The notes beneath the pieces were generated by a model that searched no databases, was not told the origin of the DNA, and saw nothing but the letters and a program-made list of their open reading frames with translations. Below, piece after piece: positions 11,470 through 64,000 of a DNA stretch of 64,000 bases. This DNA comes from Nemertoderma westbladi (Eukaryota > Animalia > Xenacoelomorpha). The stretch spans positions 1 through 64,000 of the forward strand of contig JAUCBJ010007177.1 of assembly GCA_032718475.1 (NCBI GenBank). The letters are read 5' to 3'. Each line of letters opens with the position of its first letter. Positions within the stretch are counted from its first letter, which is position 1. Made by a program: the position numbers and the translations under genes.

Positions 11470-13262
11470 GAACCACCAAATCCCAGAGCCACTAGTTCCC
11501 AACCAGAACCAATAGTTCCCAACCAGAACCAATATAGTTCCCAACCAGAGCCACTAGTTCCCAACCAGAACCAATAGTTCCCAACCAGAGCCACTAGTTC
11601 CCAACCAGAACCAATAGTTCCCAACCAGAACCAATATAGTTCCCAACCAGAGCCACTAGTTCCCAACCAGAACCAATAGTTCCCAACCAGAACCAATAGT
11701 TCCCAACCAGAGCCACTAGTTCCCAACCAGAACCAATAGTTCCCAACCAGAACCAATATAGTTCCCAACCAGAGCCACTAGTTCCCAACCAGAACCAATA
11801 GTTCCCAACCAGAGCCACTAGTTCCCAACCAGAACCAATAGTTCCCAACCAGAGCCACTAGTTCCCAACCAGAGCCACTAGTTAAAAACCAGAGCTACTA
11901 GTTCCCAACCAGAGCCACTAGTTCCCAACCAGAGCCACTAGTTAAAAACCAGAGTTACTAGTTCCCAACCAGAACCAATATAGTTCCCAACCAGAGCCAC
12001 TAGTTCCCAACCAGAACCAATAGTTCCCAACCAGAACCAATATAGTTCCCAACCAGAGCCACTAGTTCCCAACCAGAACCAATAGTTCCCAACCAGAGCC
12101 ACTAGTTCCCAACCAGAACCAATAGTTCCCAACCAGAACCAATATAGTTCCCAACCAGAGCCACTAGTTCCCAACCAGAACCAATAGTTCCCAACCAGAG
12201 CCACTAGTTCCCAACCAGAACCAATAGTTCCCAACCAGAGCCACTAGTTCCCAACCAGAGCCACTAGTTAAAAACCAGAGCTACTAGTTCCCAACCAGAG
12301 CCACTAGTTCCCAACCAGAGCCACTAGTTAAAAACCAGAGCTACTAGTTCCCAACCAGAACCAATATAGTTCCCAACCAGAGCCACTAGTTCCCAACCAG
12401 AACCAATAGTTCCCAACCAGAACCAATATAGTTCCCAACCAGAGCCACTAGTTCCCAACCAGAACCAATAGTTCCCAACCAGAGCCACTAGTTCCCAACC
12501 AGAACCAATAGTTCCCAACCAGAGCCACTAGTTCCCAACCAGAACCAATATAGTTCCCAACCAGAGCCACTAGTTCCCAACCAGAACCAATAGTTCCCAA
12601 CCAGAGCCACTAGTTCCCAACCAGAACCAATAGTTCCCAACCAGAGCCACTAGTTCCCAACCAGAGCCACTAGTTAAAAACCAGAGCTACTAGTTCCCAA
12701 CCAGAGCCACTAGTTCCCAACCAGAGCCACTAGTTAAAAACCAGAGCTACTAGTTCCCAACCAGAACCAATATAGTTCCCAACCAGAGCCACTAGTTCCC
12801 AACCAGAACCAATAGTTCCCAACCAGAGCCACTAGTTCCCAACCAGAACCAGTAGTTCCCAACCAGAGCCACTAGTTCCCAACCAGAGCCACTAGTTAAA
12901 AACCAGAGCTACTAGTTCCCAACCAGAACCAATATAGTTCCCAACCAGAGCCACTAGTTCCCAACCAGAACCAATAGTTCCCAACCAGACCCACTAGTTC
13001 ACAACCAGAGCCACTAGTTCCAAACCAGAGCCACTAGTTCCCAACCAGAGCCACTAGTTCCAAACCAGAAGCAATAGTTCATAACCAAAACAATTAGTTC
13101 CCAACGAGAACCAATAGTTCATAACCAAAACAATTAGTTCCCAACCAGAACCAATAGTTCATAACCAAAACAATTAGTTCCCAACCAGAGCCACTAGTTC
13201 CCAACCAGAGCCATTAGTTCCCAACCAAAACCACTAGTTGCCAACCAGAACCAATAGTTCCC
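11470..13262. repeat. 20-bp tandem array (TAGTTCCCAACCAGAACCAA / TAGTTCCCAACCAGAGCCAC, with 22-bp variants), ~88 copies, overlapping the ZYG11 stop codon
   Basis: Seen directly. On the minus strand the unit matches the last codons of the CDS (ELLVLVGN*). Confidence 0.97.
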
Positions 13263-15519: not shown

Positions 15520-15561
15520 TATTATATTGGTATTATTATATGATAGTCTGATAGTGCAATA

Positions 15562-15752
15562 GTCTGCAAGATACCGGTAACTATAACTAAAGCTAGTCTG
15601 CAAGACTGCAAGACTGCAAGATACCGGTAACTATAACTAAAGCTAGTCTGCAAGACTGCAAGACTGCAAGACTGCAAGATACCGGTAACTTTTTTACAAT
15701 AGGCCTACAATAAAAAATTACCAGATTACAGGATTACGATACCGGTAACTAA
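15562..15752. repeat. Short local duplications (GTCTGCAAGATACCGGTAACTATAACTAAAGCTA; (GACTGCAA)n) upstream of the zyg11 ATG
   Basis: GATACCGGTAACT occurs four times between 15570 and 15750. Confidence 0.85.
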
Positions 15753-17700: not shown

Positions 17701-17789
17701 TTTTGTCCTTATAAAACATAAAGTGTTTTTATAGAGGAGTGAACTGTTATTGATGGCGTGGTTATTTGTAATTATTGCCATTTCTAATT

Positions 17790-20438
17790 CAGTCGATCAC
17801 ACTTCACCCGATCTTCCAATTATAATTGGAGGGGATTTTAACTGCCGGATAGACCAGGGTTCCCGTGGTTCTGACCTGACAGATAGCTTAGAGAGTATTG
17901 GTTTTATCTTAATCAATGATCCCTTGAAACATACATACATTTCCCCCCAAGGGGTAAGCACCATTGATTTATTTTTTGTTAAGATTACAACCCCAATGAG
18001 CCCACCTCCGTTTACCCTTATTGATGTGAACCCTATCAGAAAACACCAACGTGTTGTGCTGTCCCTCACCCTACCTGGTTCCACTACAGTACCAAATATT
18101 CGCCCAGAACTACCTTCGCGCAACTTAAAAATAACTAAACTGAAAGACAATCCTCTTCTTACTACGATACAGGATCTTTTAACAGAAAGTAGTAACATAG
18201 TTGAGGCAAACCACCTTCTTGCAAAAGTTTTTGCTGACTCTACTATTCCGAAGCAAGTGAACTACAATCATCATGGCAAATTGTGGTTTGACAATGATTG
18301 CCGCTTACTCAAATCACAGGTTATGATACTTTTTTATAACAGGGAAATCTCAGAACACGACAAGGATCTTTACTGGAATGAAAGAAAAGTTTACAAGAAA
18401 CTCCTCAAATCAAAGCGACTGAAGCACGAGGAAAAATGTTTACTCGACAAAATTGCAAAAGCTGAGATTACTCCATGGACTCTGACAAAAGAATGTAAAC
18501 CAAATCACGTAGCCCCAATTGCGATGGATGTACTGGAATCTCATTTTGAAAATCTTCTAAGTAAATCAAAAGACCCTCCGAATATACCGCCTATTCCAGA
18601 GACATCAACTGCTGAATTAGAAAACAACGAATGGTACTACAGTCCTACATGTATAACTCGTGAAGAAGTTGAGGCTGCAATTAAACACACAGGAAATCGT
18701 AAAGCATGTGGTTCAGATAATATATACTACGAACACTTGAAACACTCTTTGCCTCTAATCCTACATATTTTGGTACTCCTCTTTAATACCTGCTTAAATA
18801 TTCGTTCGCTTCCACGTACTTGGATGTATAGTATTGTCAAGATACTCTATAAAGGTAGAGGTGCGATCACATTGCCAGATAATTACCGTGGGATTGCACT
18901 CCTCAGCGTTTTATTAAAGATCTTTACTTCTATAATAAACAAACGGATATTAAATAAAATCCGCTGGTTGATACCCGAAGAGCAGTTTGGATTTCTACCT
19001 GGTAAATCAACTCTGGATGCATTAAATCGATTGATCTCTGACATAAATTCATTGATTGACGCGAATGGTAAAGTTTATGTTGTATTTGTTGATTTCCGAA
19101 AGGCTTTTGACTCCATCAGTCGGAAAATTTATCTTAACAAGCTGTTCAACGATTTCGGTGTTAAAGGCAAACTTTACAATGTTATCAAGTATCTTCTAAA
19201 TGCAAACTACATCCAGGTGTTTGATGGTCTTCGCCTTTCAAAGAAAATACGCCAGATTATCGGATTCCTACAAGGGGACTGTTTCTCCCCTACGAGTTTC
19301 ATTTTGTATATCGCCGACCTTGTTGTTGCTTTGCGGTCAGCTACTGCCTTCTTGAAATCTATATTTTTCGCTGATGATTTAGCCTTCTACTCATCAAACC
19401 CCAAAGAGATCCAAGATAGTTTAAATAACCTTCGTAAATGGTGCAAAGATAATGCTCTTGAGGTGAATCTCGTTAAAACAAAAATTGTTAAATTTCGAAG
19501 AGGAGGCCGTTTAGCACTCTATGATAACTTCTATTATGATGGCCAACTGGTAAAGATTGTGATAAATATGAGTATTTGGGTGTAGTACTCCAGCCTACTT
19601 TGACGTTCACGAAACACATAAAAGCAAAGAAAGAAAAAGCCCACGCTGCCATTGGCTGCCTGAAAAATCTCCATCTAGTCTCCGTGGAAACGGGAATCAA
19701 AATTTTTAAAATGAAAATCGCCCCTATGGCATATTACGCCCTCTCGGAAATAGGATCGAAACTTACACTACCTCAACTAAAATAATTGGATAAAATTAAA
19801 TCTACCTTTCTTAAACGGCTCCTTGGACTCCATATTTCTTCATCATCTACTCTAGCTTTAAAATTAACTCATCAAGAAACCTTCACAAACGACATCCTTC
19901 TAACATCACCAGGTATTTTAAGCGCTGAAATTCTAGAACAATACATCATCTTCAGATCGGATCGAAATGCAAATTTCATTACTGAGAATTACAATTTAGG
20001 ACCGGCCTTCACTTCAACAACATGGACTCACAGTAACCAAAGAAACAGGCACCTCATAACAAGAACGACATCTCACGGTTTTCACTATAAACTCTGCAAC
20101 AATTCAACTTTCCACACCCCGTGTCCGGACTGCACCTGTAAATTTTGTCAAAACTCAGCCAGCGATCGTTACCACGCCCTATCGTGTGCTCAATGTCCGC
20201 CTATCGCCACCTTATCTATCATCCCATAAAACTACATTTTAAAACGTGCTTTTTTAAACTCTCATACCGGTAATATTTTAATGTACATATTTAATTATTT
20301 CATTTACTCCGTCTGTGAATTTGGAGTGTATAGAATAACCTCTAATTCAGTGTATTTAAATGTAAATTGTTGATTTCGTTAGTTATTTGTTTTATTTTAT
20401 AATTTTAATAAAAAGAGAGTTCAATTCAATTCAATCCA
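17790..20438 (+). mobile_element. 5'-truncated non-LTR retrotransposon ORF2 (APE endonuclease end, RT, Cys/His-rich C-terminus), frameshifted
   Basis: IIGGDFNCR and STIDLFF (APE); NYRGIALL, EQFGF, FVDFRKAFDS, GFLQGDCFSP and FADDL (RT). Frameshift near 19570 and in-frame stop at 19783-19785. (TTCAA)n tail. Confidence 0.95.
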
Positions 20439-21531
20439 ATGCAGAGCTATACCGAGCTAAAACCGTCCTATACCAAACTATAGTGATGCCATACAGATAA
20501 CAAGTGCAACCAATTATGGTAGACAATTTAGTCTCCCCCTTCCCTTGTCAAGGGGTTAGCATATTAAATTTATTATTGCCCTCTCGTGAACAAAAGCAAT
20601 AAAAAGTAATGGAGAATCGATAAGAATCATCGGCCTATTTCCTTTGTAAACTATTTTTGAACTCTAAACATTATTAACACATTTTAGCGCGCGCAACGCA
20701 TGAAGTGAAGAATATGTAGTCTTAGCGTATGCCACTACATAGAGTACTGTATACAGGTATTCTGTAGGATACATTACTGTTGAAAGTATTTGATTGTTGT
20801 GGGTTGTATATTGAACATACCGCATTGTCTTAATTTAGTACTGAACCGCTTGGAATACAGTACGTAGGCCTACTAATGATAAACGTCGTATAGGCATAGT
20901 TATGGGTAGAACCTACGCGTAGTTATACGTAGCACCCCCGCGTAGCACCTACGCGTAGTTAATGTTAAAACTCTGAAACTTGTGATGTATGACCCAATGT
21001 TGCGAACTACGCGTAGGTCGAAAAGATTTACCATGCCTGTGCGTTGCCAACACTACAGCACTACCTGACAGCCTGACTACTTCCTGTCAGCTAATCAATA
21101 ACCAGTATTTTCATGTATTTGTAGGCCTAACTTATCCTCTTCTCTGCTTGTTGCGCCGCATCGGCGCTACAGAAATGGAATGCCATAGAACGCAACAGAA
21201 TGTACAAGCCAATGGAATTAGAGTGGAATGTATAAACCAATCTTAGGTTGTTGCGCTGTTGCGCCAATGTTGTTCATTGGTTACAGGGCTGTTGTGCTGT
21301 TGCGCCGTTGCGCTGTTGCGTGTTTTCCAGGAAGCCATATTGTAGAATAGATTAAAAGAGAATCAACAGTCAGATATATGCTATAGGACCTAATGCTACA
21401 TGACCTAATGTGCCAGGACCTAAAGCTACAGGACCTAACGCTACAGGACCTAACGCGCCAGGACCTAAAGCTACGGGACCTAACGCTACAGGACCTAAGG
21501 TATACCGATTTGGACCTAACGCTACATTACC

Positions 21532-21670
21532 GTAAGGAGACCTCAAGTATTCACTCCGTTGTTGTTGTTGTTTTTGTTGGGGTTGTTGTTGTTGTTAATT
21601 TCTCGCCAGCTTTTGGTATTAGGGATATGGCACGGCCCCAGTAGCTCAGTTGGTAGAGCGTGGGATAAGA
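21532..21670 (+). mobile_element. Helentron/DINE-like non-autonomous element fragment (continues from 15918-15939)
   Basis: TTTTAGGTCCGCGTAGCGAG + ACCTCAAGTATTCACT, (GTT)n microsatellite and TAGCTCAGTTGGTAGAGC. An uninterrupted relative lies at 63170-63300. The family assignment is inferred. Confidence 0.55.
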
Positions 21671-21679
21671 CTTGGTTAG

Positions 21680-23100
21680 AAACTCACCTGCATTCTTGTG
21701 ATGACTGTAAAGTAAGATTTACAGAATCAAGTGGTGCCATGGAGTCCAATATCATGCTTGAAATATTTAATAGATCTAAAGATAAAATTTATGAACCAGA
21801 CCATAGTCTTCGTTTCAACGAATTTGTCAGTGATGGGGATACAAATAGTTTTAACGAAATTTGTCGGGTTTACGGTTTACGGGGTCGCTGCTACAGTAAT
21901 TGTGATAAATATCTATCTATGACAGAGGAAGAAAAGATCAAATTCAATCGTTCTGTCGAGGGTCAGAAATATTGGTCATTGGTGTGATCATGATCGCGCC
22001 TGCCAGTGTTTGAAATAAGTCGACTGTATCAACCACGTCCAAAAGCGCTTGTATAAGGCTCTAAGAGACATTTCGTCTGAGACGAAAGGAAAATTGGGGG
22101 ATAATAAGTTCATTGGAGGGGCCCCCGACAGGTTAACTCACACAAACTGTAAAATTCTCTCTGACTATTATGGTAAAGCTATATACAGTAACTGCAAAAA
22201 GCTTGATGGTGAGAATGGTGAGTCAAACCAAATGCATGTGAAACGCATGAAAACGGCTATTCTACAGTAGCAAGTTTTAGACACTGCATCCTCGGTAAAT
22301 CTTCAGCTGAAAGGCATTTACTATTGTCCTATAGGACCAATTTCATGGTGTTCATTCCATCGAACAGGGAGAGAATCACCTCAAAAATCCCACTTCTTGG
22401 ATCCGATTTTTCAAGGCCTCTTACTTCCAGTATACCAGCGATTCTATGAGGACAAACTTCTTGAAAGGTGTTTACCTGGTTACACTCATGTTTACCTGGT
22501 TACACTCATGTTTACCTGGTTACACTCATGTTTACCTGGTTACCTGGTTACACTCATGTTTACCTGGTTACACTCATGTTTACCTGGTTACACTCATGTT
22601 TACCTGGTTACACTCATGTTTGCCTGGTTACCTGGTTACACTCAAAACCAGAATGAGTCATTTCACTCATTGATTGTTTTTCAAAACCCAGATTCTTTGG
22701 AAAGCAACAGGTAAAGCTGGCTGTGTTGAGCAGCATTGCATATTTTAATTCTGGAGTTGCTGGCAGACAGGAAACATTGAATCGACTATCAACCCAGAAC
22801 CATGCGGTTTCCTCTGTCAATTTGTCTGTTCGAAAAGACCTCAAACGAGCTTCAAAGGCTATAGGAACAGCTGCAAAAAGAACTAAGCATAAGCCAACTG
22901 TTATTGCTAAAGCAATCCATGACTTATCAAATCATAATCAACTTCAAACTGCGAGCCAGCAAAGAAAGAGGAAGCTGGCAATAAAGCGAAAGCTAAAAGG
23001 ATCAGGAAGAGAGATACACCCATCCTAAGTAAACAATCGCAATAAAGCAACAAAGCAGGAAACAAACTATAAGAAATCCATCTACAAGTAACGCTTATGT
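21680..23100 (+). pseudogene. Decayed DDE transposase (Mutator-like/Kolobok-like family)
   Basis: Motifs across broken frames: SSGAME, FVSDGDTNSF, DCINHVQKRL, RLT...DYYGKAI, CP.GP.SWC, CLPGYTQNQNESFHS. Contains stops and frameshifts. Confidence 0.8.
22469..22643. repeat. 20-bp tandem repeat TGTTTACCTGGTTACACTCA (~8 copies) inside the transposase CLPGYTQ codons
   Basis: Seen directly; the reading frame resumes with QNQNES after the array. Confidence 0.95.
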
Positions 23101-34800: not shown

Positions 34801-35291
34801 TTCTTCGTTCGAATGCCTTTAGCCTATTTAATTTTTAGGGTGAGGTAAATGTCATGACCTTGTGATTTCCATAAGCAACGCCGTAAATCGGTTAAACTTA
34901 CGCTGTACAATAGTTACCATCTTATGGTCTGAGAGTTTTTGGGATGATATGCAGAAAAATAAGGATCATAGCGAAATATTATATTTAAATACTTAAACTA
35001 TAAAGTCTTGAACGTGTTACATAAAACAATTAATAAAATAATCCAGATCACCGAAATATAATAGGAAAGTTAGGCATAAGGTTGTCAGCAACAACATATT
35101 TACAATTCAACCAATCAAGACCGTTTCAGATATTTAACCTTTTAGGATGCTCTCCGGCATGGTCTACTAATAATTATTGCCACATCATCGTTTCTAAAGT
35201 TTCTAGGACAACGGACGACTCGCAAACCAATCACAACCTTGAAGAAAGATCACCAAGCAATATGCGACCAATCACGAAGTGTGGACTGAAG

Positions 35292-35505
35292 TTAGGCATA
35301 CATATCCTCACGGTCTCCAATCCCCATAGTTTCGCCCTCCTCCAAGGAACTGAAGTTGAGGAAGTGATTGGCTCGGTGAATTTCGTTATAGAATTCTTTG
35401 GGATTCGCGAGTTGTAGTTCGTACCGCATGGTGGCGTCGTGACGGACTCCCATAAAGTTGTAATTCCAGGAACCGATAGCTGGAACCATAAAGAAGCCCA
35501 GGAAC
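35292..35505 (-). CDS. PRPF8: PRP8 terminal coding exon (FLGFFMVP...DREDMYA*)
   Basis: Near-identical to the Prp8 C-terminal tail. Acceptor TTTCCACAG|G; phase fits the previous exon. Confidence 0.97.
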
Positions 35506-35626
35506 CTGTGGAAATAAACAAGTTAGAACGAGGGATGGATAAATTAGATAGAGCCTCATGCCTTTAAAATATGCTGAGAAAACTAACAATTTCGAAAAAA
35601 TATACTAACAAATCTAAAAGTCTAAC

Positions 35627-35868
35627 CTGTCAGACAGTAGCAACTGCACCCGCTCATAGTGGCTAGGCAAGTATCCCTTAGGTTGGTTACCGGTATCTCG
35701 GTTGTTTCTTCCCCACTCGTAACCGGAAGGTGTCAGTTTATACGAGCAGAGACTAACAGACCCTGGTGTGAAACTAACAGTAACAACTATTGTTCGCTCG
35801 CCGTCCCACTGGGTATTGTCCGCCATAATCTTGGCGTGGGTTGTGACATCTTGGGAGGATAGTTGCAC
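35627..35868 (-). CDS. PRPF8: PRP8 exon ([17 protein letters not shown]...LLSDR)
   Basis: Jab1/MPN domain sequence. Acceptor TTTCAG|GTG, donor AG|GTTAGA; 242 nt. Confidence 0.97.
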
Positions 35869-36105
35869 CTGAAATATGGGAAATAAAATTGAGTGGAATT
35901 CACCACTATAGTAGAGATCATTATCAGATATCTTTATCAATTAATGGACAGATAGGAGGGAGCCAAACCGAAGGCAAACTCTAGTGGAAGTTAGTAATAC
36001 CTGCAGATACAGAATATATACAATTATTATTTTATGAGCAAATTATATTTAAAAGAATGAACATAATATGACCAATACATAACATAATGATACCGTCTCG
36101 CCGAC

Positions 36106-36246
36106 CTGTTCATTTGGCTGTGTGTGGATCCAACCCAGAGGTTCCATTTCCTTAAGGTATTCATGTTCCGGTAATAGGTTGGGTAGATGTACTGTTTGGT
36201 GGGTACCCCACTGTGGTACCATTACTATACAGTGGATCTCTTTAAC
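36106..36246 (-). CDS. PRPF8: PRP8 exon ([47 protein letters not shown])
   Basis: Manual translation matches Prp8; 141 nt in frame. Acceptor TTTAG|GTT, donor CAG|GTCGGC (weak). Not in the ORF track. Confidence 0.93.
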
Positions 36247-38980
36247 CTAAATAGTAACAGGTTGGGTAGATGTAATGTTTGGTGGGTACCCCACTGTGGT
36301 ACCATTACTATACAGTGGATCTCTTTAACCTAAATAGTAACAGGTTGGGTAGATGTACTGTTTGGTGGGTACCCAACTGTGGTACCATTACTATACAGTG
36401 GATCTCTTTAACCTAAATAGTAACAGGTTGGGTAGATGTACTGTTTGGTGGGTACCCCACTGTGGTACCATTACTATACAGTGGATCTCTTTAACCTAAA
36501 TAGTAACAGGTTGGGTAGATGTAATGTTTGGTGGGTACCCCACTGTGGTACCATTACAATACAGTGGATCTCTTTAACCTAAATACTAACAGGTTGGGTA
36601 TAGATGTACTGTTTGGTGGGTACCCCACTGTGGTACCATTACTATACAGTGGATCTCTTTAACCTAAATAGTAACAGGTTGGGTAGATGTAATGTTTGGT
36701 GGGTACCCCACTGTGGTACCATTACTATACAGTGGATCTCTTTAACCTAAATAGTAACAGGTTGGGTAGATGTAATGTTTGGTGGGTACCCCACTGTGGT
36801 ACCATTACAATACAGTGGATCTCTTTAACCTAAATACTAACAGGTTGGGTAGATGTACTGTTTGGTGGGTACCCCACTGTGGTACCATTACTATACAGTG
36901 GATCTCTTTAACCTAAATACTAACAGGTTGGGTAGATGTACTGTTCGGTGGGTACCCCACTGTGGTACCATTACTATACAGTGGATCTCTTTAACCTAAA
37001 TAGTAACAGGTTGGGTAGGTGTACTGTTTGGTGGGTACCCCACTGTGGTACCATTACTATACAGTGGATCTCTTTAACCTAAATAGTAACAGGTTGGGTA
37101 GATGTACTGTGTGGTGGGTACCCCACTGTGGTACCATTCCTTTTCAGTGGATATCTTTAATCTAAATAGTAACAGGTTGGGTAGATGTACTGTGTGGTGG
37201 GTACCCCACTGTGGTACCATTCCTTTTCAGTGGATATCTTTAATCTAAATAGTAACAGGTTGGGTAGATGTACTGTTTGGTGGGTACCCCACTGTGGTAC
37301 CATTCCTTTTCAGTGGATATCTTTAATCTAAATAGTAACAGGTTGGGTAGATGTACTGTGTGGTGGGTACCCCACCGTGGTACCATTCCTTTTCAGTGGA
37401 TATCTTTAATCTAAATAGTAACAGGTTGGGTAGATGTACTGTGTGGTGGGTACCCCACTGTGGTACCATTCCTTTTCAGTGGATATCTTTAATCTAAATA
37501 GTAACAGGTTGGGTAGATGTACTGTTTGGTGGGTACCCCACTGTGGTACCATTACTATACAGTGGATCTCTTTAACCTAAATAGTAACAGGTTGGGTAGA
37601 TGTACTGTTTGGTGGGTACCCCACTGTGGTACCATTACTATACAGTGGATCTCTTTAACCTAAATAGTAACAGGTTGGGTAGATGTACTGTGTGGTGGGT
37701 ACCCCACTGTGGTACCATTCCTTTTCAGTGGATATCTTTAATCTAAATAGTAACAGGTTGGGTAGATGTACTGTTTGGTGGGTACCCCACTGTGGTACCA
37801 TTCCTTTTCAGTGGATATCTTTAATCTAAATAGTAACAGGTTGGGTAGATGTACTGTTTGGTGGGTACCCCACTGTGGTACTAATACTATACAGTGGATC
37901 TCTTTAACCTATATAGTAACAGGTTGGGTAGATGTGCTGTTTGGTGGGTACCCCACTGTGGTACCATTCCTTTTCAGTGGATCTCTTTAACCTAAATAGT
38001 AACAGATTGGGTAGATGTACTGTTTGGTGGGTACCCCACTGTGGTACTATTACTATACAGTGGATCTCTTTAACCTAAATAGTAACAGGTTGGGTAGATG
38101 TACTGTTTGGTGGGTACCCCACTGTGGTACCATTACTATACAGTGGATCTCTTTAAACTAAATAGTAACAGGTTGGGTAGATGTACTGTTTGGTGGGTAC
38201 CCCACTGTGGTACCATTACTATACAGTGGATCTCTTTAACCTAAATAGTAACAGGTTGGGTAGATGTACTGTTTGGTGGGTACCCCACTGTGGTACCATT
38301 CCTTTTCAGTGGATCTCTTTAACCTAAATAGTAACAGGTTGGGTAGATGTACTGTTTGGTAGGTACCCCACTGTGGTACCATTCCTTTTCAGTGGATCTC
38401 TTTAACCTAAATAGTAACAGGTTGGGTAGATGTAATGTTTGGTGGGTACCCCACTGTGGTACTATTACTATACAGTGGATCTCTTTCACCTAAATAGTAA
38501 CAGGTTGGGTAGATGTACTGTTTGGTGGGTACCCCACTGTGGTACTATTACTATACAGTGGATCTCTTTCACCTAAATAGTAACAGGTTGGGTAGATGTA
38601 CGGTTTGGTGGGTACCCCACTGTGGTACCATTACTATACAGTGGATCTCTTTCACCTAAATAGTAACAGGTTGGGTAGATGTACTGTTTGGTGGGTACCC
38701 CACTGTGGTACCATTACTATAAAGTGGATCTCTTTAACCTAAATAGAAACAGGTTGGGTAGATGTGCCGTTTGGTGGGTGCCCCACTGTGGTACCATTAC
38801 TATACACATACAGTGGATCTAGTTAACCTAAATAGTAACAGGTTGGGTAGATGTACTGTTTGGTGGGTACCCCACTGTGGTACCATTACTATACACATAC
38901 AGTGGATCTAGTTAACCTAAATAGTAACAGGTTGGATAGATGTAATGTTTGGTGGGTAGTACCCTGTGGTACCATTACTA
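36247..38980. repeat. 83-bp tandem array (~33 copies) made of the PRP8 acceptor plus exon 5' part, filling an intron
   Basis: Minus-strand unit: GTTAAAGAGATCCACTGTATAGTAATGGTACCACAGTGGGGTACCCACCAAACAGTACATCTACCCAACCTGTTACTATTTAG. Confidence 0.97.
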
Positions 38981-38988
38981 AGTCTCAC

Positions 38989-39264
38989 CTGGGGGTTGTC
39001 GGAAGGACTAACACCATACAGGTATCCTGCGATTTGGGTCCGTAAGTCGGATATGCAGATAAACTTCTTGAGAATGTTTTTTGGCAGAATGTAGGTGAAT
39101 CCAGATTCCTTGATGTCGTCGCTGGAGACATAGATATGGTTGGTTCGGAGATGGAGATTGGTGCAGCTGATAGCGCGAACCCGCCACTCGGTACGAGAAG
39201 AAAAGGTCTGTGACTCGTAGTTACTCGTTGTCGCTGTAATTATCTCGTCACCGTGTTTATTTAC
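38989..39264 (-). CDS. PRPF8: PRP8 exon ([33 protein letters not shown]...GVSPSDNPQ)
   Basis: Manual translation, 276 nt (92 codons). Acceptor TTTAG|GTA, donor CAG|GTGAGA. Not in the ORF track. Confidence 0.96.
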
Positions 39265-39691
39265 CTAAACCAATAGAGTTTATTCACAATCACAAAAACA
39301 GTTTATTTGTCTATAGAAATAGTTTATTTACTTACACAAATAAATGGTTTTTATTACCTACACAGATAACGAATTTATTTACCTATACAAAAATAGTTTA
39401 TTTCCCTAAACGCAAAATAGTTTATTTAAATTACAATACAATCAATCACATACAATTAAAGAGTATGGAAAACATAAATTGTTTCGAATATTTATAGTCT
39501 AAAGAAACGCCTTGGTGCTGCCAGGCTCAACAATGTTAATACCTCAACTATAATACCGGTAGTAAATTGTGTAATTGTGCGGTCACTAATAACCTTAATT
39601 GGTTGATGTGTCTATTAAACATATGTTAAAAAAATGGTTAAAATGGTTAATAATTATATGTTCTCTTTTTCACAGTATTTTATTTTTTACC

Positions 39692-42600
39692 TAAGAAAAA
39701 AAAGTACGACATAATGCTGAGGTACAATAATTTAGCATACAGTACTTTGGGAAAAAAAAGTACGACATAATGCTATGAGGTACAATAATTTAGCATACAG
39801 TACTTTGGGAAAAAAAGTACGACATAATGGTATGAGGTACAATAATTTAGCATACAGTACTTTGGGAAAAAAAGTACGACATAATGCTATGAGGTACAAT
39901 AATTTAGCATACAGTACTTTGGGAAAAAAAGTACGACATAATGGTATGAGGTACAATAATTTAGTATACAGTACTTTGGGAAAAAAAAGTACGACATAAT
40001 GCTATGAGGTACAATAATTTAGCATACAGTACTTTGGGAAAAAAAGTACGACATAATACTATGAGGTACAATAATTTAGCATACAGTACTTTGGGAAAAA
40101 AAGTACGACATAATGCTATGAGGTACAATAATTTAGCATACAGTACTTTGGGAAAAAAAGTACGACATAATGCTATGAGGTACAATAATTTAGCATACAG
40201 TACTTTGGGAAAAAAAGTACGACATAATGGTATGAGGTACAATAATTTAGTATACAGTACTTTGGGAAAAAAAGTACGACATAATGCTATGAGGTACAAT
40301 AATTTAGCATACAGTACTTTGGGAAAAAAAGTACGACATAATGCTATGAGGTACAATAATTTAGCATACAGTACTTTGGGAAAAAAAGTACGACATAATG
40401 CTATGAGGTACAATAATTTAGAATACAGTACTTTGGGAAAAAAAAAGTACGACATAATGCTATGAGGTACAATAATTTAGCATACAGTACTTTGAGAAAA
40501 AAAAAAGTACGACATAATGCTATGAGGTACAATAATTTAGTATACAGTACTTTGGGAAAAAAAGTACGACATAATGCTATGAGGTACAATAATTTAGCAT
40601 ACAGTACTTTGGGAAAAAAAGTACGACATAATGCTATGAGGTACAATAATTTAGCAAACAGTACTTTGGGAAAAAAAGTACGACATAATGCTATGAGGTA
40701 CAATAATTTAGCATACAGTACTTTGGGAAAAAAAGTACGACATAATGCTATGAGGTACAATAATTTAGCATACAGTACTTTGGGAAAAAAAGTACGACAT
40801 AATGCTATGAGGTACAATAATTTAGCAAACAGTACTTTGGGAAAAAAAGTACGACATAATGCTATGAGGTACAATAATTTAGCATACAGTACTTTGGGAA
40901 AAAAAGTACGACATAATGCTATGAGGTACAATAATTTAGCATACAGTACTTTGGGAAAAAAAAAGTACGACATAATGCTATGAGGTACAATAATTTAGCA
41001 TACAGTACTTTGGGAAAAAAAGTACGACATAATGCTATGAGGTACAATAATTTAGCAAACAGTACTTTGGGAAAAAAAGTACGACATAATGCTATGAGGT
41101 ACAATAATTTAGCATACAGTACTTTGGGAAAAAAAGTACGACATAATGCTATGAGGTACAATAATTTAGCATACAGTACTTTGGGAAAAAAAAGTACGAC
41201 ATAATGCTATGAGGTACAATAATTTAGCATACAGTACTTTGGGAAAAAAAAGTACGACATAATGGTATGAGGTACAATAATTTAGCAAACAGTACTTTGG
41301 GAAAAAAAAAGTACGACATAATGCTATGAGGTACAATAATTTAGTATACAGTACTTTGGGAAAAAAAAGTACGACATAATGCTATGAGGTACAATAATTT
41401 AGTATACAGTACTTTGGGAAAAAAAAAAGTACGACATAATGCTATGAGGTACAATAATTTAGCATACAGTACTTTGGGAAAAAAAAGTACGACATAATGC
41501 TATGAGGTACAATAATTTAGCAAACAGTACTTTGGGAAAAAAAGTACGACATAATGCTATGAGGTACAATAATTTAGCATACAGTACTTTGGGAAAAAAA
41601 GTACGACATAATGCTATGAGGTACAATAATTTAGCATACAGTACTTTGGGAAAAAAAGTACGACATAATGCTATGAGGTACAATAATTTAGCATACAGTA
41701 CTTTGGGAAAAAAAAGTACGACATAATGCTATGAGGTACAATAATTTAGCAAACAGTACTTTGGGAAAAAAAGTACGACATAATGCTATGAGGTACAATA
41801 ATTTAGTATACAGTACTTTGGGAAAAAAAAAGTACGACATAATGCTATGAGGTACAATAATTTAGTATACAGTACTTTGGGAAAAAAAAAAGTACGACAT
41901 AATGCTATGAGGTACAATAATTTAGTATACAGTACTTTGGGAAAAAAAGTACGACATAATGCTATGAGGTACAATAATTTAGCATACAGTACTTTGGGAA
42001 AAAAAGTACGACATAATGCTATGAGGTACAATAATTTAGCATACAGTACTTTGGGAAAAAAAGTACGACATAAAGCTATGAGGTACAATAATTTAGCATA
42101 CAGTACTTTGGGAAAAAAAGTACGACATAATGCTATGAGGTACAATAATTTAGCATACAGTACTTTGGGAAAAAAAGTACGACATAATGTTATGAGGTAC
42201 AATAATTTAGCATACAGTACTTTGGGAAAAAAAGTACGACATAATGCTATGAGGTACAATAATTTAGCATACAGTACTTTGGGAAAAAAAGTACGACATA
42301 ATGGTATGAGGTACAATAATTTAGCAAACAGTACTTTGGGAAAAAAAGTACGACATAATGCTATGAGGTACAATAATTTAGCATACAGTACTTTGGGAAA
42401 AAAAGTACGACATAATGCTATGAGGTACAATAATTTAGCATACAGTACTTTGGGAAAAAAAGTACGACATAATGCTATGAGGTACAATAATTTAGCATAC
42501 AGTACTTTGGGAAAAAAAAGTACGACATAATGGTATGAGGTACAATAATTTAGCAAACAGTACTTTGGGAAAAAAAAAGTACGACATAATGCTATGAGGT

Positions 42601-44132
42601 ACAATAATTTAGTATACAGTACTTTGGGAAAAAAAAGTACGACATAATGCTATGAGGTACAATAATTTAGTATACAGTACTTTGGGAAAAAAAAAAGTAC
42701 GACATAATGCTATGAGGTACAATAATTTAGCATACAGTACTTTGGGAAAAAAAAGTACGACATAATGCTATGAGGTACAATAATTTAGCAAACAGTACTT
42801 TGGGAAAAAAAGTACGACATAATGCTATGAGGTACAATAATTTAGCATACAGTACTTTGGGAAAAAAAGTACGACATAATGCTATGAGGTACAATAATTT
42901 AGCATACAGTACTTTGGGAAAAAAAGTACGACATAATGCTATGAGGTACAATAATTTAGCATACAGTACTTTGGGAAAAAAAAGTACGACATAATGCTAT
43001 GAGGTACAATAATTTAGCAAACAGTACTTTGGGAAAAAAAGTACGACATAATGCTATGAGGTACAATAATTTAGTATACAGTACTTTGGGAAAAAAAAAG
43101 TACGACATAATGCTATGAGGTACAATAATTTAGTATACAGTACTTTAGGAAAAAAAAAAGTACGACATAATGCTATGAGGTACAATAATTTAGTATACAG
43201 TACTTTGGGAAAAAAAGTACGACATAATGCTATGAGGTACAATAATTTAGCATACAGTACTTTGGGAAAAAAAGTACGACATAATGCTATGAGGTACAAT
43301 AATTTAGCATACAGTACTTTGGGAAAAAAAGTACGACATAAAGCTATGAGGTACAATAATTTAGCATACAGTACTTTGGGAAAAAAAGTACGACATAATG
43401 CTATGAGGTACAATAATTTAGCATACAGTACTTTGGGAAAAAAAGTACGACATAATGTTATGAGGTACAATAATTTAGCATACAGTACTTTGGGAAAAAA
43501 AGTACGACATAATGCTATGAGGTACAATAATTTAGCATACAGTACTTTGGGAAAAAAAGTACGACATAATGGTATGAGGTACAATAATTTAGCAAACAGT
43601 ACTTTGGGAAAAAAAGTACGACATAATGCTATGAGGTACAATAATTTAGCATACAGTACTTTGGGAAAAAAAGTACGACATAATGCTATGAGGTACAATA
43701 ATTTAGCATACAGTACTTTGGGAAAAAAAGTACGACATAATGCTATGAGGTACAATAATTTAGCATACAGTACTTTGGGAAAAAAAATACGACATAATGC
43801 TATGAGGTACAATAATTTAGCATACAGTACTTTGGGGAAAAAAGTACGACATAATGGTATGAGGTACAATAATTTAGCATACAGTACTTTGGGAAAAAAA
43901 GTACGACATAATGCTATGAGGTACAATAATTTAGCATACAGTACTTTGGGAAAAAAGTACGACATAATGCTATGAGGTACAATAATTTAGCATACAGTAC
44001 TTTGGGAAAAAAAAAGTACGACATAATGCTATGAGGTACAATAATTTAGTATACAGTACTTTGGGAAAAAAAAGTACGACATAATGCTATGAGGTACAAT
44101 AATTTAGCATACAGTACTTTGGGAAAAAAAAG
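39692..44132. repeat. 57-bp tandem array (GGGAAAAAAAGTACGACATAATGCTATGAGGTACAATAATTTAGCATACAGTACTTT), ~77 copies, intronic
   Basis: Period read directly, with a variable A-tract. A 1268-bp block duplication is present (variant CATAAAGC at ~42069 and ~43337). Confidence 0.98.
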
Positions 44133-44147
44133 TTAACTTTTACTTAC

Positions 44148-44345
44148 AGTTTTTGTCGTTGTAGAAGTTAACTGACTCTGCTCTTTGGTCTGTTTCTCGA
44201 TTTCAGCTATCTGTTGCCGTTGCTGACTAGGTGCCGATATCTCCATTCCCAGGATTATATCACGAATCTCGCTCTGTGTTAATGAACCTATATTCACATT
44301 ATTCTTCTTCCCGTAGTCCGCCAGGATTAAATCCTTTAGTTGCAC
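44148..44345 (-). CDS. PRPF8: PRP8 exon ([18 protein letters not shown]...[12 protein letters not shown])
   Basis: Matches the Prp8 RNaseH-like/linker region; 198 nt. Acceptor ATTAG|GTG, donor ACT|GTAAGT. No further upstream exon was recognised in the window. Confidence 0.97.
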
Positions 44346-44429
44346 CTAATGGGGTGTAAATCGCACGGGTAATTGAATTTCTCATCTTGATAATTAAACT
44401 GCTAATAATCTAGTGCTACTGATAATATA

Positions 44430-47400
44430 ACTCTTGATTGCAACCCAAACCTTATTACTAGACCACATAATCGAATGTACAGATAGCCTTCGGACGAAAT
44501 ACCCACCAGCCTCCACCATAATATTGGGTGATTACAATCACACACTTAATGACCAAATGTTATTTTCACAATTAGATCTATCTCAGCTTCTTAAAATAAT
44601 GTCCAACATTTGGAAAGAACACACTAGATAAAATATCAACAGATATAACTGAACATATCGCCCACAACGGGCCTACAACCTTGGCTCCTATCGGCCCATC
44701 AGAAGGTCACCGTGTGGTGTTGTGGATACCCACAATGATCATCCCAGAAAAAACATCCAAGACTATTATCACCACAACTCATCGTCCCTTCAGAGATTCA
44801 AATATTACATCGTTTGGACAGTGGATCACCCAATACACATGGGAACTCTTAACAATTACTGACCCAGATGTCGCCACTATGCAATTAAATGATATACTTG
44901 TCCAGCAATACCCCCACCACTTCCCAGAAGTAAAAATTATGAAAAAAGTTAAGGATAAGCCTTGGATGACATCTAGGATTCGACTACTAATCACACAAAA
45001 GCAGCGGGCATTCCAAAGAAACCAAGCCATAAAATATAAAACACTACGAACATCACTGAATTTGGAAATAAATGCAGCCAAATCATCATGGTATGGTAAA
45101 ACAATATCACATATGGGATGCTTACAGCCCGGGCAGTGGTATCGCTCCATTGCCAAATTAATCAATTAAACGCCAAAACCATTGAACCTCCAAGTGTGTT
45201 TGGCTGGAAACAGTGGGCAACAATTTGATAATCAAACCATTGCAAATTCTGTAAATAATTTTTTTGCTGACATTTGCAACCAACTACCCCAATTAGACTC
45301 CCTGGCTTCATACCTGACACCAAACCACCAGTGATAGATAGAAGGGAGGTGTATGATATCCTCAAAAATATCAACGTAACAAAGGCAATATCACCTGCGA
45401 TATACCAAAACCGTCCAATAAAAGATTTTGCATGTGAGATTAGTGTGCCTCTAACCCACATTTACAATATATCTATTCAGACTGGCATTTTTCCATCACT
45501 ATGGAAGGAATGTTATGCTACACCTGCACCGAATATTTAACCCCCAGCTACACCTGTACCGAAAATTTAACCTCCAAAGATGTTTGGTCAATATCATTCA
45601 CTAAAACTTTCTCAAAGGCTTTTGAACAGCTGGTAGTAAAATGGATAATTAAAGATATAAAGGACAACGTCGACAAGCGCCAATTCGGTAACATGAACCA
45701 CAGGTCCACGTCCTTGTACTTGATCATTCTTCTGGACGATATACTGAAAGCTCTTGAAACACCAGGCACCATAGTAAATGTAATGACATATTACTTCTCC
45801 AAGGCTTTCGACCGCATAGACCACACAATTCATAGTAAATAAATGTAATGACATTCTCCAAGGCTTTCGACCGCATAGACCACACAATTACTATTAACAA
45901 ACTACTCAAGATGGGGTCTACGTCCATGGTTAGCGCGGTGGCTTTGCAGTTTCCTGTCTTACCGTACCCAATCCACGGTATACAAAGGTTCTACTTCCAA
46001 AGGGCGTACTCTTAAGTTCAGGGGTTCCCCATGGGACTATCGTAGGTTTATAATTTTTCCTGTGCCAGATAAATGACGCTATGGAGCAAATTAAAGAACG
46101 CCTTAAGTTTGTAGACGACTTGTCAGTGTATGAGATTTTACAAATTCAATTGACCAGCTATTTGACTCAAATATACAACACTACACGGATATACTAATAG
46201 AATGGGCAAACGATAGTAACATGAAACTCAATCCGGTGAAATGTAAACAAATGACCTTCTACAAAGCAAAACGACCAATTGTACTTGCACAAGTCAATAT
46301 TTGTGGAACAAATGTGGATGTAGTTGGCAATGTAAAACTTCTCGGTGTTACAATATCCGCCGATCTCAAATGGAATATCCACATAACTGACACAATAAAA
46401 CGATCAGCTAAACGAATGTACATGTTACATATATTAAAAAAATGCAAAGCATCGCGGAAAGACATGGTAGCCATATACATCTCTCATATTCGGACCGTTC
46501 TAGAATATTGCACCGCGGTTTGGCATTCTAGTATCACCAAGCAACTCTCAGACGCCCTAGAAAGAGTACAGAAAAGAGCAATGCGAATCATCTTCGGTAT
46601 CCATTATAATAGTTATGAACAGGCACTACAGTCCGGGGGTTACCTACATTGAAGGACAGACGCGAAAAACTGTGTTTAAATTGTGCAAAAACCATTTATC
46701 TACACCACAGATACTTACTGTAAAACAATTTATCTACACCACAGATACTTACTGTAAAACCATTTATCTACACCACAGATACTTACTGTAAAACAATTTA
46801 TCTACACCACAGATACTTACAGTAAAACAATTTATCTACACCACAGATACTTACTGTAAAACAATTTATCTACACCACAGATACTTACTGTAAAACAATA
46901 TATCTACACCACAGATACTTACTGTAAAACCATTTATCTACACCACAGATACTTACTGTAAAACCATTTATCTACACCACAGATACTTACTGTAAAACAA
47001 TTTATCTACACCACAGATACTTACTGTAAAACCATTTATCTACACCACAGATACTTACTGTAAAACAATTTATCTACACCACAGATACTTACTGTAAAAC
47101 CATTTATCTACACCACAGATACTTACTCTAAAACCATTTATCTACACCACAGATACTTACTGTAAAACCATTTATCTACACCACAGATACTTACTGTAAA
47201 ACCATTTATCTACACCACAGATACTTACTGTAAAACCATTTATCTACACCACAGATACTTACTGTAAAACCATTTATCTACACCACAGATACTTACTGTA
47301 AAACAATTTATCTACACCACAGATACTTACTGTAAAACCATTTATATACACCACAGATACTTACTGTAAAACCATTTATCTACACCACAGATACTTACTG

Positions 47401-50400
47401 TAAAACCATTTATCTAGACCAAAGATACTTACTGTAAAACCATTTATCTACACCACAGATACTACTGTAAAACAATTTATCTACACCACAGATACTTACT
47501 GTAAAACCATTTATCTACACCACAGATACTTACTGTAAAACAATTTATCTACACCACAGATACTTACTGTAAAACCATTTATCTACACCACAGATACTTA
47601 CTGTAAAACCATTTATCTACACCACAGATACTTACTGTAAAACAATTTATCTACACCACAGATACTTACTGTAAAACCATTTATCTACACCACAGATACT
47701 TACTGTAAAACCATTTATCTACACCACAGATACTTACTGTAGTAAGTGTCTACTACACCACAGATACTTACTGTAAAACAATTTATCTACACCACAGATA
47801 CTTACTGTAAAACCATTTATCTACACCACAGATACTTACTGTAAAACCATTTATCTACACCACAGATACTTACTGTAAAACCATTTATCTACACCACAGA
47901 TACTTACTGTAAAACAATTTATCTACCCAAAGATACTTACTGTAAAACAATTTATCTACACCACAGATACGTACTGTAAATCCATTTATCTACACCACAG
48001 ATACTTACTGTAGTAAGTGTCTACTACACCACAGATACTTACTGTAAAACAATTTATCTACACCACAGATACTTACTGTAAAACAATTTATCTACACCAC
48101 AGATACTTACTGTAAAACCATTAATCTACACCACAGATACTTACTGTAAAACCATTTATCTACACCACAGATACTTACTCTAAAACCATTTATCTACACC
48201 ACAGATACTTACTGTAAAACCATTTATCTACACCACAGATACTTACTGTAAAACCATTTATCTACACCACAGATACTTACTGTAAAACCATTTATCTACA
48301 CCACAGATACTTACTGTAAAACCATTTATCTACACCACAGATACTTACTGTAAAACAATATATCTACACCACAGATACTTACTGTAAAACCATTTATCTA
48401 CACCACAGATACTTACTGTAAAACCATTTATCTACACCACAGATACTTACTGTAAAACCATTTATCTACACCACAAATACTTACTGTAAAACCATTTATC
48501 TACACCACAGATACTTACTGTAAAACCATTTGTCTACACCACAGATACTTACTGTAAAACCATTTATCTACACCACAGATACTTACTGTAAAACCATTTA
48601 TCTACACCACAGATACTTACTGTAAAACAATTTATCTACACCACAGATACTTACTTAAAACCATTTATCTACATCGCAGATACTTACTGTAAAACCATTT
48701 ATCTATACCACATATACTTACTGTAAAACCATTTATCTACACCACAGATACTTACTGTAAAACCATTTATCTACACCACAGATACTTACTGTAAAACCAT
48801 TTATCTACACCACAGATACTTACTGTAAAACAATTTATCTACACCACAGATACTTACTGTAAAACAATTTATCTACACCACAGATACTTACTGTAAAACC
48901 ATTTATCTACACCACAGATACTTACTGTAAAACCATTTATCTACACCACAGATACTTACTGTAAAACCATTTATCTACACCACAGATACTTACTGTAAAA
49001 CCATTTATCTATACCACAGATACTTACTGTAAAACAATTTATCTACACCACAGATACTTACTGTAAAACAATTTATCTACACCACAGATACTTACTGTAA
49101 AACAATTTATCTACACCACAGATACTTACTGTAAAACCATTTATCTACGCCACAGATACTTACTGTAAAACCATTTATCTATACCACAGATACTTACTGT
49201 AAAACCATTTATCTACACCACAGATACTTACTGTAAAACCATTTAAATACACCACAGATACTTACTGTAAAACAATTTATCTACACCACAGATACTTACT
49301 GTAAAACCATTTATCTACACCACAGATACTTACTGTAAAACAATTTATCTACACCACAGATACTTACTGTAAACCCATTTATCTACACCACAGATACTTA
49401 CTGTAAAACCATTTATCTACACCACAGATACTTACTGTAAAACAATTTATCTACACCACAGATACTTACTGTAAAACCATTTATCTACACCACAGATACT
49501 TATTGTAAAACCATTTATCTACACCACAGATACTTACTGTAAAACCATTTATATACACCACAGATACTTACTGTAAAACCATTTATCTACACCACAGATA
49601 CTTACTGTAGTAAGTGTCTACTACACCACAGATACTTACTGTAAAACAATTTATCTACACCACAGATACTTACTGTAAAACCATTTATCTACACCACAGA
49701 TACTTACTGTTAAATCCATTTATCTACACCACAGATACTTACTGTAAAACCATTTATCTACACCACAGATACTTACTGTAAAACAATTTATCTACACCAC
49801 AGATACTTACTGTAAAACAATTTATCTACACCACAGATACTTACTGTAAATCCATTTATCTACACCACAGATACTTACTGTAGTAAGTGTCTACTACACC
49901 ACAGATACTTACTGTAAAACAATTTATCTACACCACAGATACTTACTGTAAAACCATTTATCTACACCACAGATACTTACTGTAAAACCATTTATCTACA
50001 CCACAGATACTTACTGTAAAACCATTTATCTACACCACAGATACTTACTGTAAAACAATTTATCTATACCACAGATACTTACTGTAAAACCATTTATCTA
50101 CACCACAGATACTTACTGTAAAACCATTTATCTACACCACAGATACTTACTGTAAAACCATTTATCTACACCACAGATACTTACTGTAAAACAATATATC
50201 TACACCACAGATACTTACTTAAAACCATTTATCTACATCGCAGATACTTACTGTAAAACCATTTATCTATACCACAGATACTTACTGTAAAACCATTTAT
50301 CTACACCACAGATACTTACTGTAAAACCATTTATCTACACCACAGATACTTACTGTAAAACCATTTATCTACACCACAGATACTTACTGTAAAACAATTT

Positions 50401-51800
50401 ATCTACACCACAGATACTTACTGTAAAACAATTTATCTACACCACAGATACTTACTGTAAAACCATTTATCTACACCACAGATACTTACTGTAAAACCAT
50501 TTATCTACACCACAGATACTTACTGTAAAACCATTTATCTACACCACAGATACTTACTGTAAAACCATTTATCTATACCACAGATACTTACTGTAAAACA
50601 ATTTATCTACACCACAGATACTTACTGTAAAACAATTTATCTACACCACAGATACTTACTGTAAAACAATTTATCTACACCACAGATACTTACTGTAAAA
50701 CCATTTATCTACGCCACAGATACTTACTGTAAAACCATTTATCTACACCACAGATACTTACTGTAAAACCATTTATCTATACCACAGATACTTACTGTAA
50801 AACAATTTATCTACACCACAGATACTTACTGTAAAACAATTTATCTACACCACAGATACTTACTGTAAAACAATTTATCTACACCACAGATACTTACTCT
50901 AAAACCATTTATCTACACCACAGATACTTACTGTAAAACCATTTATCTACACCACAGATACTTACTGTAAAACCATTTATCTACACCACAGATACTTACT
51001 GTAAAACAATTTATCTACACCACAGATACTTACTGTAAAACCATTTATCTACACCACAGATACTTACTGTAAAACCATTTATCTACACCACAGATACTTA
51101 CTGTAAAACCATTAATCTACACCACAGATACTTACTATAAAACCATTTATCTACACCACAGATACTTACTGTAAATCCATTTATCTACACCACAGATACT
51201 TACTGTAGTAAGTGTCTACTACACCACAGATACTTACTGTAAAACAATTTATCTACACCACAGATACTTACTATAAAACCATTTATCTACACCACAGATA
51301 CTTACTGTAAAACCATTTATCTACACCACAGATACTTACTGTAAAACAATTTATCTACACCACAGATACTTACTGTAAAACCATTTATCTACACCACAGA
51401 TACTTACTGTAAAACCATTTATCTACACCACAGATACTTACTGTAAAACCATTTATCTACACCACAGATACTTACTGTAAAACAATTTATCTACACCACA
51501 GATACTTACTACCTCCATTGCGATCTGAAAGTAGAAACCAAAAATGGAACTCGGAAATGACAATAATATTACGTTACCAATAGCTAAAACTGATAGAAAC
51601 TCAACAATCCCGTAGATGGTCAGACTAATGAATAGTGCAAAATCACATTAACGGCCATCCGCAAAAGATAAGCAAACTACCATGACTCGCCCCACATGCC
51701 TGGCAATATACGTATGTGCTGCCGGCCACTATCTCACACATTATTGGTGTTTAACTCTGTATTTCATATAATTATTATTTTTTATTTAATTTTAATTTAA
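44430..51800 (+). mobile_element. Decayed CR1/L2-group LINE ORF2, interrupted near its 3' end by the 34-bp array
   Basis: IILGDYN, KPWMT, RQFG, FSKAFDRIDH, FVDDL, MKLNPVKCK, KLLGVTI and LERVQKRAMRII across frameshifts. It resumes ...RYLLPPLRSE after 51510. Confidence 0.9.
46686..51510. repeat. 34-bp tandem array (GTAAAACCATTTATCTACACCACAGATACTTACT), ~142 copies
   Basis: Period read directly (acagat at 46741 and 46775). Confidence 0.98.
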
Positions 51801-54256: not shown

Positions 54257-54634
54257 ATGGCGGGGGCTGTTGCGCGGGCGGCTGGTAAAGCGTGGAACAA
54301 AGTTCTCGATCGTGTCGAGGCGGTTCTACCCGAAAAACTCCAAAAAATCTGGGTCCATCCGGCCGGACCAAAGACCGTGTTCTTCTGGGCGCCGACCTTC
54401 AAGTGGGGGTTGGTGATAGCGGGGATTGCGGATATAGCCCGACCAGCGGACAAACTGAGTGCGTCCCAGTCTACAGCGCTGGCAGCCACAGGGACTATCT
54501 GGTCTAGGTACTCCCTAGTTATCATACCGGTTAACTACAATCTATTCAGTGTGAATGTGTTCGTAGCTGCGACCGGATACTTCCAACTCGCGAGGATATA
54601 CAACCATAGAAAGAATTTACCAAAGGAAGTCTAG
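54257..54634 (+). CDS. MPC2: Mitochondrial pyruvate carrier 2, 125 aa, intronless
   Basis: W.HPAGPKTVFFWAPTFKWGLVIAGIADIARPADKLS..QS.AL.ATG.IWSRYSLVIIP.N..LFSVN.FV is the MPC2 signature. AATAAA at ~54755; CpG-rich upstream region. Confidence 0.97.
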   Translation: MAGAVARAAGKAWNKVLDRVEAVLPEKLQKIWVHPAGPKTVFFWAPTFKWGLVIAGIADIARPADKLSASQSTALAATGTIWSRYSLVIIPVNYNLFSVNVFVAATGYFQLARIYNHRKNLPKEV

Positions 54635-63939: not shown

Positions 63940-64000
63940 GTCCACCTTGGTGTAGTGGTTGCATTGAATTCACATCTCTCGGAGGTCGTGGGTTCGATCC
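63940..64000 (+). mobile_element. tRNA-derived SINE head or tRNA pseudogene, cut by the window end
   Basis: A box TGGTGTAGTGG (63948) and B box GGTTCGATCC (63991). No convincing anticodon stem. Confidence 0.55.

Follow-up and report, generated by a model that had tools for sequence, protein, structure and literature searches.

An intron of the PRP8 gene was found to consist almost wholly of 33 tandem copies of its own 3' splice site together with the start of the following exon. The gene lies in the window (the whole 64,000-nt stretch of DNA that was analyzed), and the intron occupies positions 38988–36247 of the minus strand. We consider it probable, at roughly three chances in four, that this array is a mirage minisatellite, i.e. 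that the acceptor and the exon start were amplified at a pre-existing intron, that the old intron body was likely deleted, and that the last acceptor is the one used.

The intron is 2742 nt long and of the GT-AG type, with GTGAGACT at its 5' end and TATTTAG at its 3' end. A period of 83 nt (33.7 copies, 95% matches) was detected by TRF at 36171–38980. When the intron was split into units, each was seen to comprise ca. 76 nt of the start of the next exon followed by TATTTAG. The donor GTGAGACT (38981–38988, minus strand) is the sole non-repeat part at the 5' end; the units follow at 36247–38980 (minus strand) and offer 32 decoys in addition to the true acceptor, 36247|36246, an arrangement backed by TRF, the unit split, and the read depth described below. 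Most units (29) are 83 nt long, two (units 2 and 3) are 89 nt, one is 85 nt, and one, unit 1, is 72 nt and begins at exon nucleotide 20, right after the 8-nt donor. The part of the intron that is not derived from the exon was measured at ca. 239 nt (8.7%), about 91% is exon-derived, and no old intron body is left. The original prediction of a 2.74-kb PRP8 intron built from about 33 copies of acceptor plus exon start, with some 8 nt at the donor and 7 nt per unit as its only other sequence, was borne out. The unit was not found elsewhere in the 64,000-nt window.

Among the 29 units of 83 nt, there are 20 distinct sequences, with a mean mutual difference of 5.1% and a difference of 4.8% from the first 76 nt of the true exon. 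Unit variants are clustered in blocks. The most diverged units are those at the 5' border (units 1–3, with 18, 9, and 13 differences vs. 1–8 in the others), whereas the unit at the 3' border is not diverged. Every one of the 33 units ends in AG. The last 20 nt of the true acceptor are common to 26 of the 33 acceptors and the stretch from −20 to +6 to 14, but the stretch from −40 to +20 is common to only four (units 27, 28, 30, and 33); these counts refine the expectation that nearly every unit would offer the same acceptor context.

Five PRP8 exons were located in the window, all on the minus strand. Their frame is open to the natural stop, and they encode the C-terminal part of PRP8. The most upstream one found (VQLK...TTKT, by tblastn) lies at 44148–44345. 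The exon upstream of the array (VNKH...DNPQ, 92 codons, 38989–39264) corresponds to human residues 2047–2138 (E 9e-52, tblastn) and is 88–90% identical to the top PRP8 matches, which confirms the predicted identity of the host gene. Downstream of the array is the true exon (VKEI...PNEQ, 141 nt, 36106–36246), which belongs to the JAB/MPN domain (Pfam JAB) and the first 76 nt of which are the template of the unit. It is followed by the exon with which PROCT starts (35627–35868; tblastn and Pfam) and by the last coding exon, which runs to the stop codon (35292–35505; tblastn). In a quick tree of 80 rows covering the first 286 residues, the highest identity was to Priapulus (87%); the protein is animal-like, and that tree gave no firm placement. 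The other introns of the gene end in ATTAG, TTTAG, TTCAG, and CACAG, and two of its donors, GTCGGC and GTTAGA, are weak yet are spliced in the transcript-like contig described below. Behind each of the 32 upstream acceptors, a premature stop is reached after 2–56 codons. Use of an earlier acceptor had been predicted to shift the frame into a TAG; a stop does await all 32, but many units contain an in-frame stop ahead of that frame-shifted TAG.

Four runs (X3, X4, X6, and X7) were compared, as contigs, with positions 34950–36290 of the window. X3 is a DNA run and is possibly the assembly's own source. Its depth was 30.6 over the unique flank and 499.6 and 450.2 for two unit-core contigs. The resulting ratios (16.3 and 14.7) were compared with the 15.3 and 13.4 expected from the assembled array, the second expectation assuming that the contig's single differing letter is the G/T variant discussed below. 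With a unique contig of depth 37 as the baseline, the ratios were 13.5 and 12.2; on either baseline, the depth agrees with the assembled copy number within ca. 12%. The depth-37 contig also reproduces the donor and the variant units 1 and 2. The depth, this contig, and the 20 unit types support a real array and speak against an artefact.

X4 comes from another study. It was taken as RNA only because its contig skips introns at GT-AG sites and the run has no depth in those introns. This contig (1194 nt, depth 449) contains the exons and the 3' UTR with no letter that differs from the window. Both introns downstream of the true exon are skipped (at CT..AC on the forward strand), and the joints of the last two coding exons are present. 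At 36248 the contig continues, past the true exon, into 30 letters that form its loose end and are the last 30 nt of the upstream exon. This is the 38989–36246 junction that the original prediction had called for, without a mismatch, and it places the splice at the last acceptor. The contig is the deepest PRP8 contig in X4, and its identity to the window's exons speaks for expression of this copy. No unit tail occurs in any X4 contig, although such contigs drop rare isoforms. X4 also holds other PRP8-like contigs (ca. 80–85% alike, depth 49–102), which may stem from a second paralogue or from further organisms that were sampled along with it. An exon-joined contig from X6 (ca. 78% alike) and a 71-nt piece of the last exon from X7 do not inform the intron position. 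Expression of the gene is supported, and so is splicing to the last acceptor, the latter by a single transcript-like contig from an individual that may or may not carry the array.

With the next donor at 36105, acceptors 33, 32, 31, and 30 would define exons of 141, 224, 307, and 390 nt. In metazoan splicing, exon definition and proximity favor the shortest exon. Duplication tests cited in PMC1557585 point the same way. Exon definition would then pick the acceptor nearest the next donor, yielding the 141-nt exon, and RNAs spliced to other acceptors would be removed by NMD. The branch site may in addition be made more open by a variant in the last unit (36247–36329, minus strand), to which the true acceptor belongs and in which the A at −27 is a candidate branch point. 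The variant is a G>T change (CATTAC for CAGTAC) that removes an upstream AG and places a U two bases before that A. It occurs in six of the 33 units, including the last, and is absent from units 31 and 32. The predicted acceptor hairpin is weakened by it from −14.0 to −8.8 kcal/mol, and the predicted unpaired probability at −30 to −25 rises from 0.35 to 0.66–0.85. Its possible role as a selection cue is a lead only: the chance of its sitting last is 18% (6/33), and it cannot be the whole selector because decoys 27, 28, and 30 are identical to the true site from −40 to +20. Its concentration near the 3' end (four of the last seven units vs. two of the first 26, p = 0.011) was not trusted, since neighboring units are related.

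Masking of the decoys by hairpins was also considered as the main selector. The consensus acceptor was predicted to fold at −14.0 kcal/mol, vs. −4.2 ± 2.2 kcal/mol in mononucleotide shuffles (0 of 500 as low, with the folding window chosen post hoc); a 390-nt fold reached a z of only −1.72. This candidate was rejected because a hairpin is nearly absent (−2.5) from the seven AG|AT decoys and because the last 12 nt are predicted to be equally paired in true and decoy sites.

A more novel reading, to which we give a low probability, is a composite one: that the acceptors are used recursively with the original body lost, or that the intron was born from the exon, and that the lineage, its PRP8 introns having turned over wholesale, is remaking them from boundary repeats. 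Its first element taken alone is unlikely. Upstream acceptors would often be used first, each splice would regenerate CAG|GTTAAA or CAG|GTGAAA as a new donor, and the intron would be removed stepwise, in a self-correcting manner, down to the last acceptor. Twenty-four of the 32 decoys do read AG|GT (19 GTTAAA, three GTGAAA, and two GTTAAC), the gene already uses the weak donors GTTAGA and GTCGGC, and human UBC is reported to be spliced at dual-specific AGGT sites that lie in tandem repeats (PMC10809524). The end product would be the same mRNA as that in the X4 contig. No intermediate was present among the contigs, though contigs could not show one. Against stepwise removal, GT is lost at eight of the 32 boundaries (seven AT and one TT, five of them in a row) and is therefore not conserved, and, according to the accessible part of another paper, F7 as well as globin duplication tests simply favor the proximal site (PMC1557585).

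A second array of the same kind adjoins the VNKH exon. This decayed array (39255–39428, minus strand; TRF) forms the end of the preceding intron, has a 23-bp period, and comprises the acceptor of that intron and ca. 10 nt of the VNKH exon. At least 14 of 22 nt agree with the true boundary in seven windows, spread over six places; the shuffle expectation was 0.17, with a maximum of 3. It is the same event at an older stage, a second mirage. Seven large arrays occupy 29.2 kb, or 45.7%, of the window, and tandem amplification is thus routine here; this abundance of minisatellites on a similar scale had been missed in the original prediction.

Other arrays and genes were noted in the window. A 57-bp array (77 copies, 39697–44130, minus strand) starts ca. 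15 nt past a PRP8 donor and takes up the greater part of a 4.9-kb PRP8 intron; each unit includes a T/C run followed by AAAG, which is acceptor-like, and no significant resemblance was found between this unit and the adjacent donor boundary (p about 0.12). A 34-bp array (ca. 142 copies, 46688–51510, minus strand) contains 139 GTAAGT donors and 122 TTTTACAG acceptor-like motifs. Its start is a donor-like site that is preceded by TTTCAG and 12 nt (51524–51513, encoding IAME), and IAME is the best match to the PRP8 sequence IKVE among 184 AG-12nt-GT candidates. On this weak evidence, there may be a microexon here and a donor-side mirage. A 20-bp array at 11483–13262 adjoins a long single-exon ORF (13237–15630, minus strand) for a ZER1-like protein; another such ORF (9115–9966, minus strand) encodes a SAM methyltransferase, the best relatives of which are only 35–40% identical. 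A LINE-type endonuclease/RT ORF and a Mutator-like transposase fragment were recognized by Pfam among 17735–19582, 21520–21984, and 44600–46649 (all plus strand). The PRP8 intron contains more ORF fragments that resemble LINEs on visual inspection but have no Pfam match, and no Rfam match was obtained at 34900–44400. An intronless gene for a mitochondrial pyruvate carrier (Pfam MPC; 54257–54631, plus strand) runs opposite to PRP8 and is situated upstream of the first exon located for it. As tblastn detected no further PRP8 exon up to position 64000, this gene may be nested in a PRP8 intron of more than 19 kb.

Two origins had been put forward for the array intron, namely takeover of an existing intron and intron birth by exon duplication. 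The unit tail bears on this choice. TATTTAG differs from the end of the upstream exon, CCCCCAG, at all five positions other than AG, and it resembles the other intron ends of the PRP8 gene. An intron-like tail that is unlike the exon end favors takeover of a presumed original intron. Birth is not favored.

The position of the intron was compared with those in PRP8 orthologues. Homologous ORFs were fetched (n = 240); the NPQ motif was present in 172, and 45 of these leave PRP8 exactly after the motif, a count that derives from length-limited searches biased toward ORFs ending at NPQ. A Val (GT) codon is found in 41 of the 45, and several ORFs that leave PRP8 at NPQ are 90–96% identical to named animal PRP8. 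At one locus (L037), the codon of the array intron is likewise interrupted, by a 59-nt intron of the form GTAAGT...TTTTAG. It is, however, the only one with an intron at NPQ|VKE among 76 scorable DNA loci (many of the other 75 are intron-free or are transcripts) and among the 31 loci with any intron in the region. Animal-like loci mostly use intron positions that this gene lacks, and none of the five PRP8 intron positions in the window (35292–44345, minus strand) is among the commonest in those loci. The sequence CAG|GT is a proto-splice site, at which parallel intron gains are expected. The NPQ|VKE position is thus either an ancient one that has been lost many times or a hot spot created by CAG|GT. 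Since other eukaryotes have introns at this codon, albeit patchily, birth is weakened rather than excluded.

Tandem genomic duplication is a documented mechanism of intron gain, as presented in the available text of two papers (PMC3443670, PMC2891723), and the model of Rogers resembles the present case in that exon sequence, duplicated where AG|GT occurs, makes up the intron. Applied here, it would start from a CAG|GTT site that had no intron and was duplicated along with the 76 nt of exon downstream of it; TATTTAG would then have arisen from the 7-nt upstream tail, and the donor GTGAGACT from the first copy of GTT, through selection and homogenization. The high exon-derived fraction with no trace of an old body, the CAG|GT insertion site, and a donor that three small deletions in a copy of the exon start could have produced all agree with this; moreover, the five positions, none of them common in animal-like loci, suggest high intron turnover in the lineage. 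We nonetheless judge birth by this route a little less likely even than stepwise removal. It needs five changes out of five in the tail, fixed in nearly all units, and the model, as stated in the accessible part of its description, requires a wholly exonic unit (PMC3443670), whereas the PRP8 unit has an intron-type end that does not resemble the upstream exon. Nor is the match of the donor significant: an equally good fit is achieved by 10–11% of GT-starting 8-mers and by 38–41% of GTRAG 8-mers. The neighboring 23-bp array also copies an intron end and not an exon end, and introns occur at the same position elsewhere (L037 and the 45 ORFs).

If an existing intron was taken over, a first duplication may have been aided by the short match between CTGTTAC (intron end) and CTATTAC (exon nucleotides 69–75). 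Every unit has a G at nucleotide 71, where the true exon has an A, and no difference is listed at this nucleotide for the X6 contig. These observations weakly suggest that the intron-derived part of the unit may be 12–14 nt long, the duplication having been seeded by that match. Unequal crossing-over or slippage, with local homogenization, would have followed, and lastly the loss of a stretch reaching from immediately after the donor into one of the units. On this view the array would be junk that is tolerated and would have no regulatory role.

That it is instead a selected regulatory device, in which the number of copies would set how much PRP8 is lost to unproductive splicing and NMD, seems very improbable. 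Splicing factors often autoregulate through poison exons, and a premature stop does follow every decoy; such stops, however, are an automatic consequence of the 83-nt unit length, 46% of the window is taken up, irrespective of function, by arrays at least about as large, and no decoy-using contig was present in X4. Least credible is an assembly artefact or a silent pseudogene copy, for although no single read or contig spans the array among the contigs compared, X3 may be the assembly's source, and other PRP8-like contigs exist in X4, the depth fits the copy number, the donor with units 1 and 2 and 20 unit types in blocks are present, the window-identical spliced contig is the deepest in X4, and the frame is open.

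The array amounts to a natural test of 3' splice-site choice: a gene with little tolerance for splicing error presents 33 near-identical acceptors, and over 60 nt three of these do not differ from the true one at all. Counts of junctions per unit would weigh donor distance, the branch-region variant, and NMD against one another. If stepwise removal or birth from the exon were true, a core spliceosome gene would still carry a natural series of 33 near-identical acceptor sites. The content of an intron can be almost wholly overwritten by the neighboring exon; an intron that looks exon-born therefore need not be new, and the PRP8 array is a caution for surveys of intron gain.

A literature search, which covered few subscription papers, returned no paper on an acceptor array in PRP8, and no PRP8 intron map was obtained from PMC9887622. 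The following comparisons draw on the accessible portions of the papers cited. In intron 7 of human F7, a 37-bp VNTR spans the exon-intron boundary and provides 5–9 identical splice sites; splicing takes place solely at the site next to the true exon (PMC1557585). F7 is the donor-side mirror of the present array; there, a 5'-3' scan picks the first site, whereas in PRP8 the last of 33 acceptors must win, which is not expected from a scan starting at the donor. Dual-specific AGGT splice sites occur in the tandem repeats of UBC and VCX3A (PMC10809524), and AG|GT likewise stands at unit boundaries in the array. The UBC and VCX3A units are coding, in frame, and spliced stochastically; the PRP8 units, by contrast, are 83 nt long, every alternative is nonsense, and eight of 32 boundaries have no GT.

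The closest relatives are the amphioxus mirages, minisatellites described in Adh3, the globins BflGb6 and BflGb9, troponin C, and PGBD5 (PMC3087553, PMC3902484). The BflGb6 mirage consists of tandem copies of an intron's 3' end together with the 5' portion of the next exon. Many mirage copies keep their AG/GT signals, normal splicing is reported to be undisturbed, the units evolve in concert with the border units excluded, and mirages have been proposed as a path to new introns (PMC3087553, PMC3902484). The PRP8 unit likewise spans a host exon-intron boundary, and its splice signals are kept (AG in 33 of 33 units, the last 20 nt shared by 26 of 33). Normal mRNA is represented by the X4 contig, in which rare isoforms would be invisible and whose source may differ in array genotype. 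Concerted evolution is evident as well, with units 1–3 the most diverged, although the 3' border unit is not. The PRP8 array departs from the amphioxus cases, as far as the accessible text describes them, in its 33 units (vs. 3–6 in BflGb6), in replacing nearly the whole intron so that 8 nt lie between exon and array, and in being hosted by a core spliceosome gene. The kind of structure is known, and it is the size and the host gene that are striking; the PRP8 array is likely an extreme case of the mirages rather than a newly born intron.
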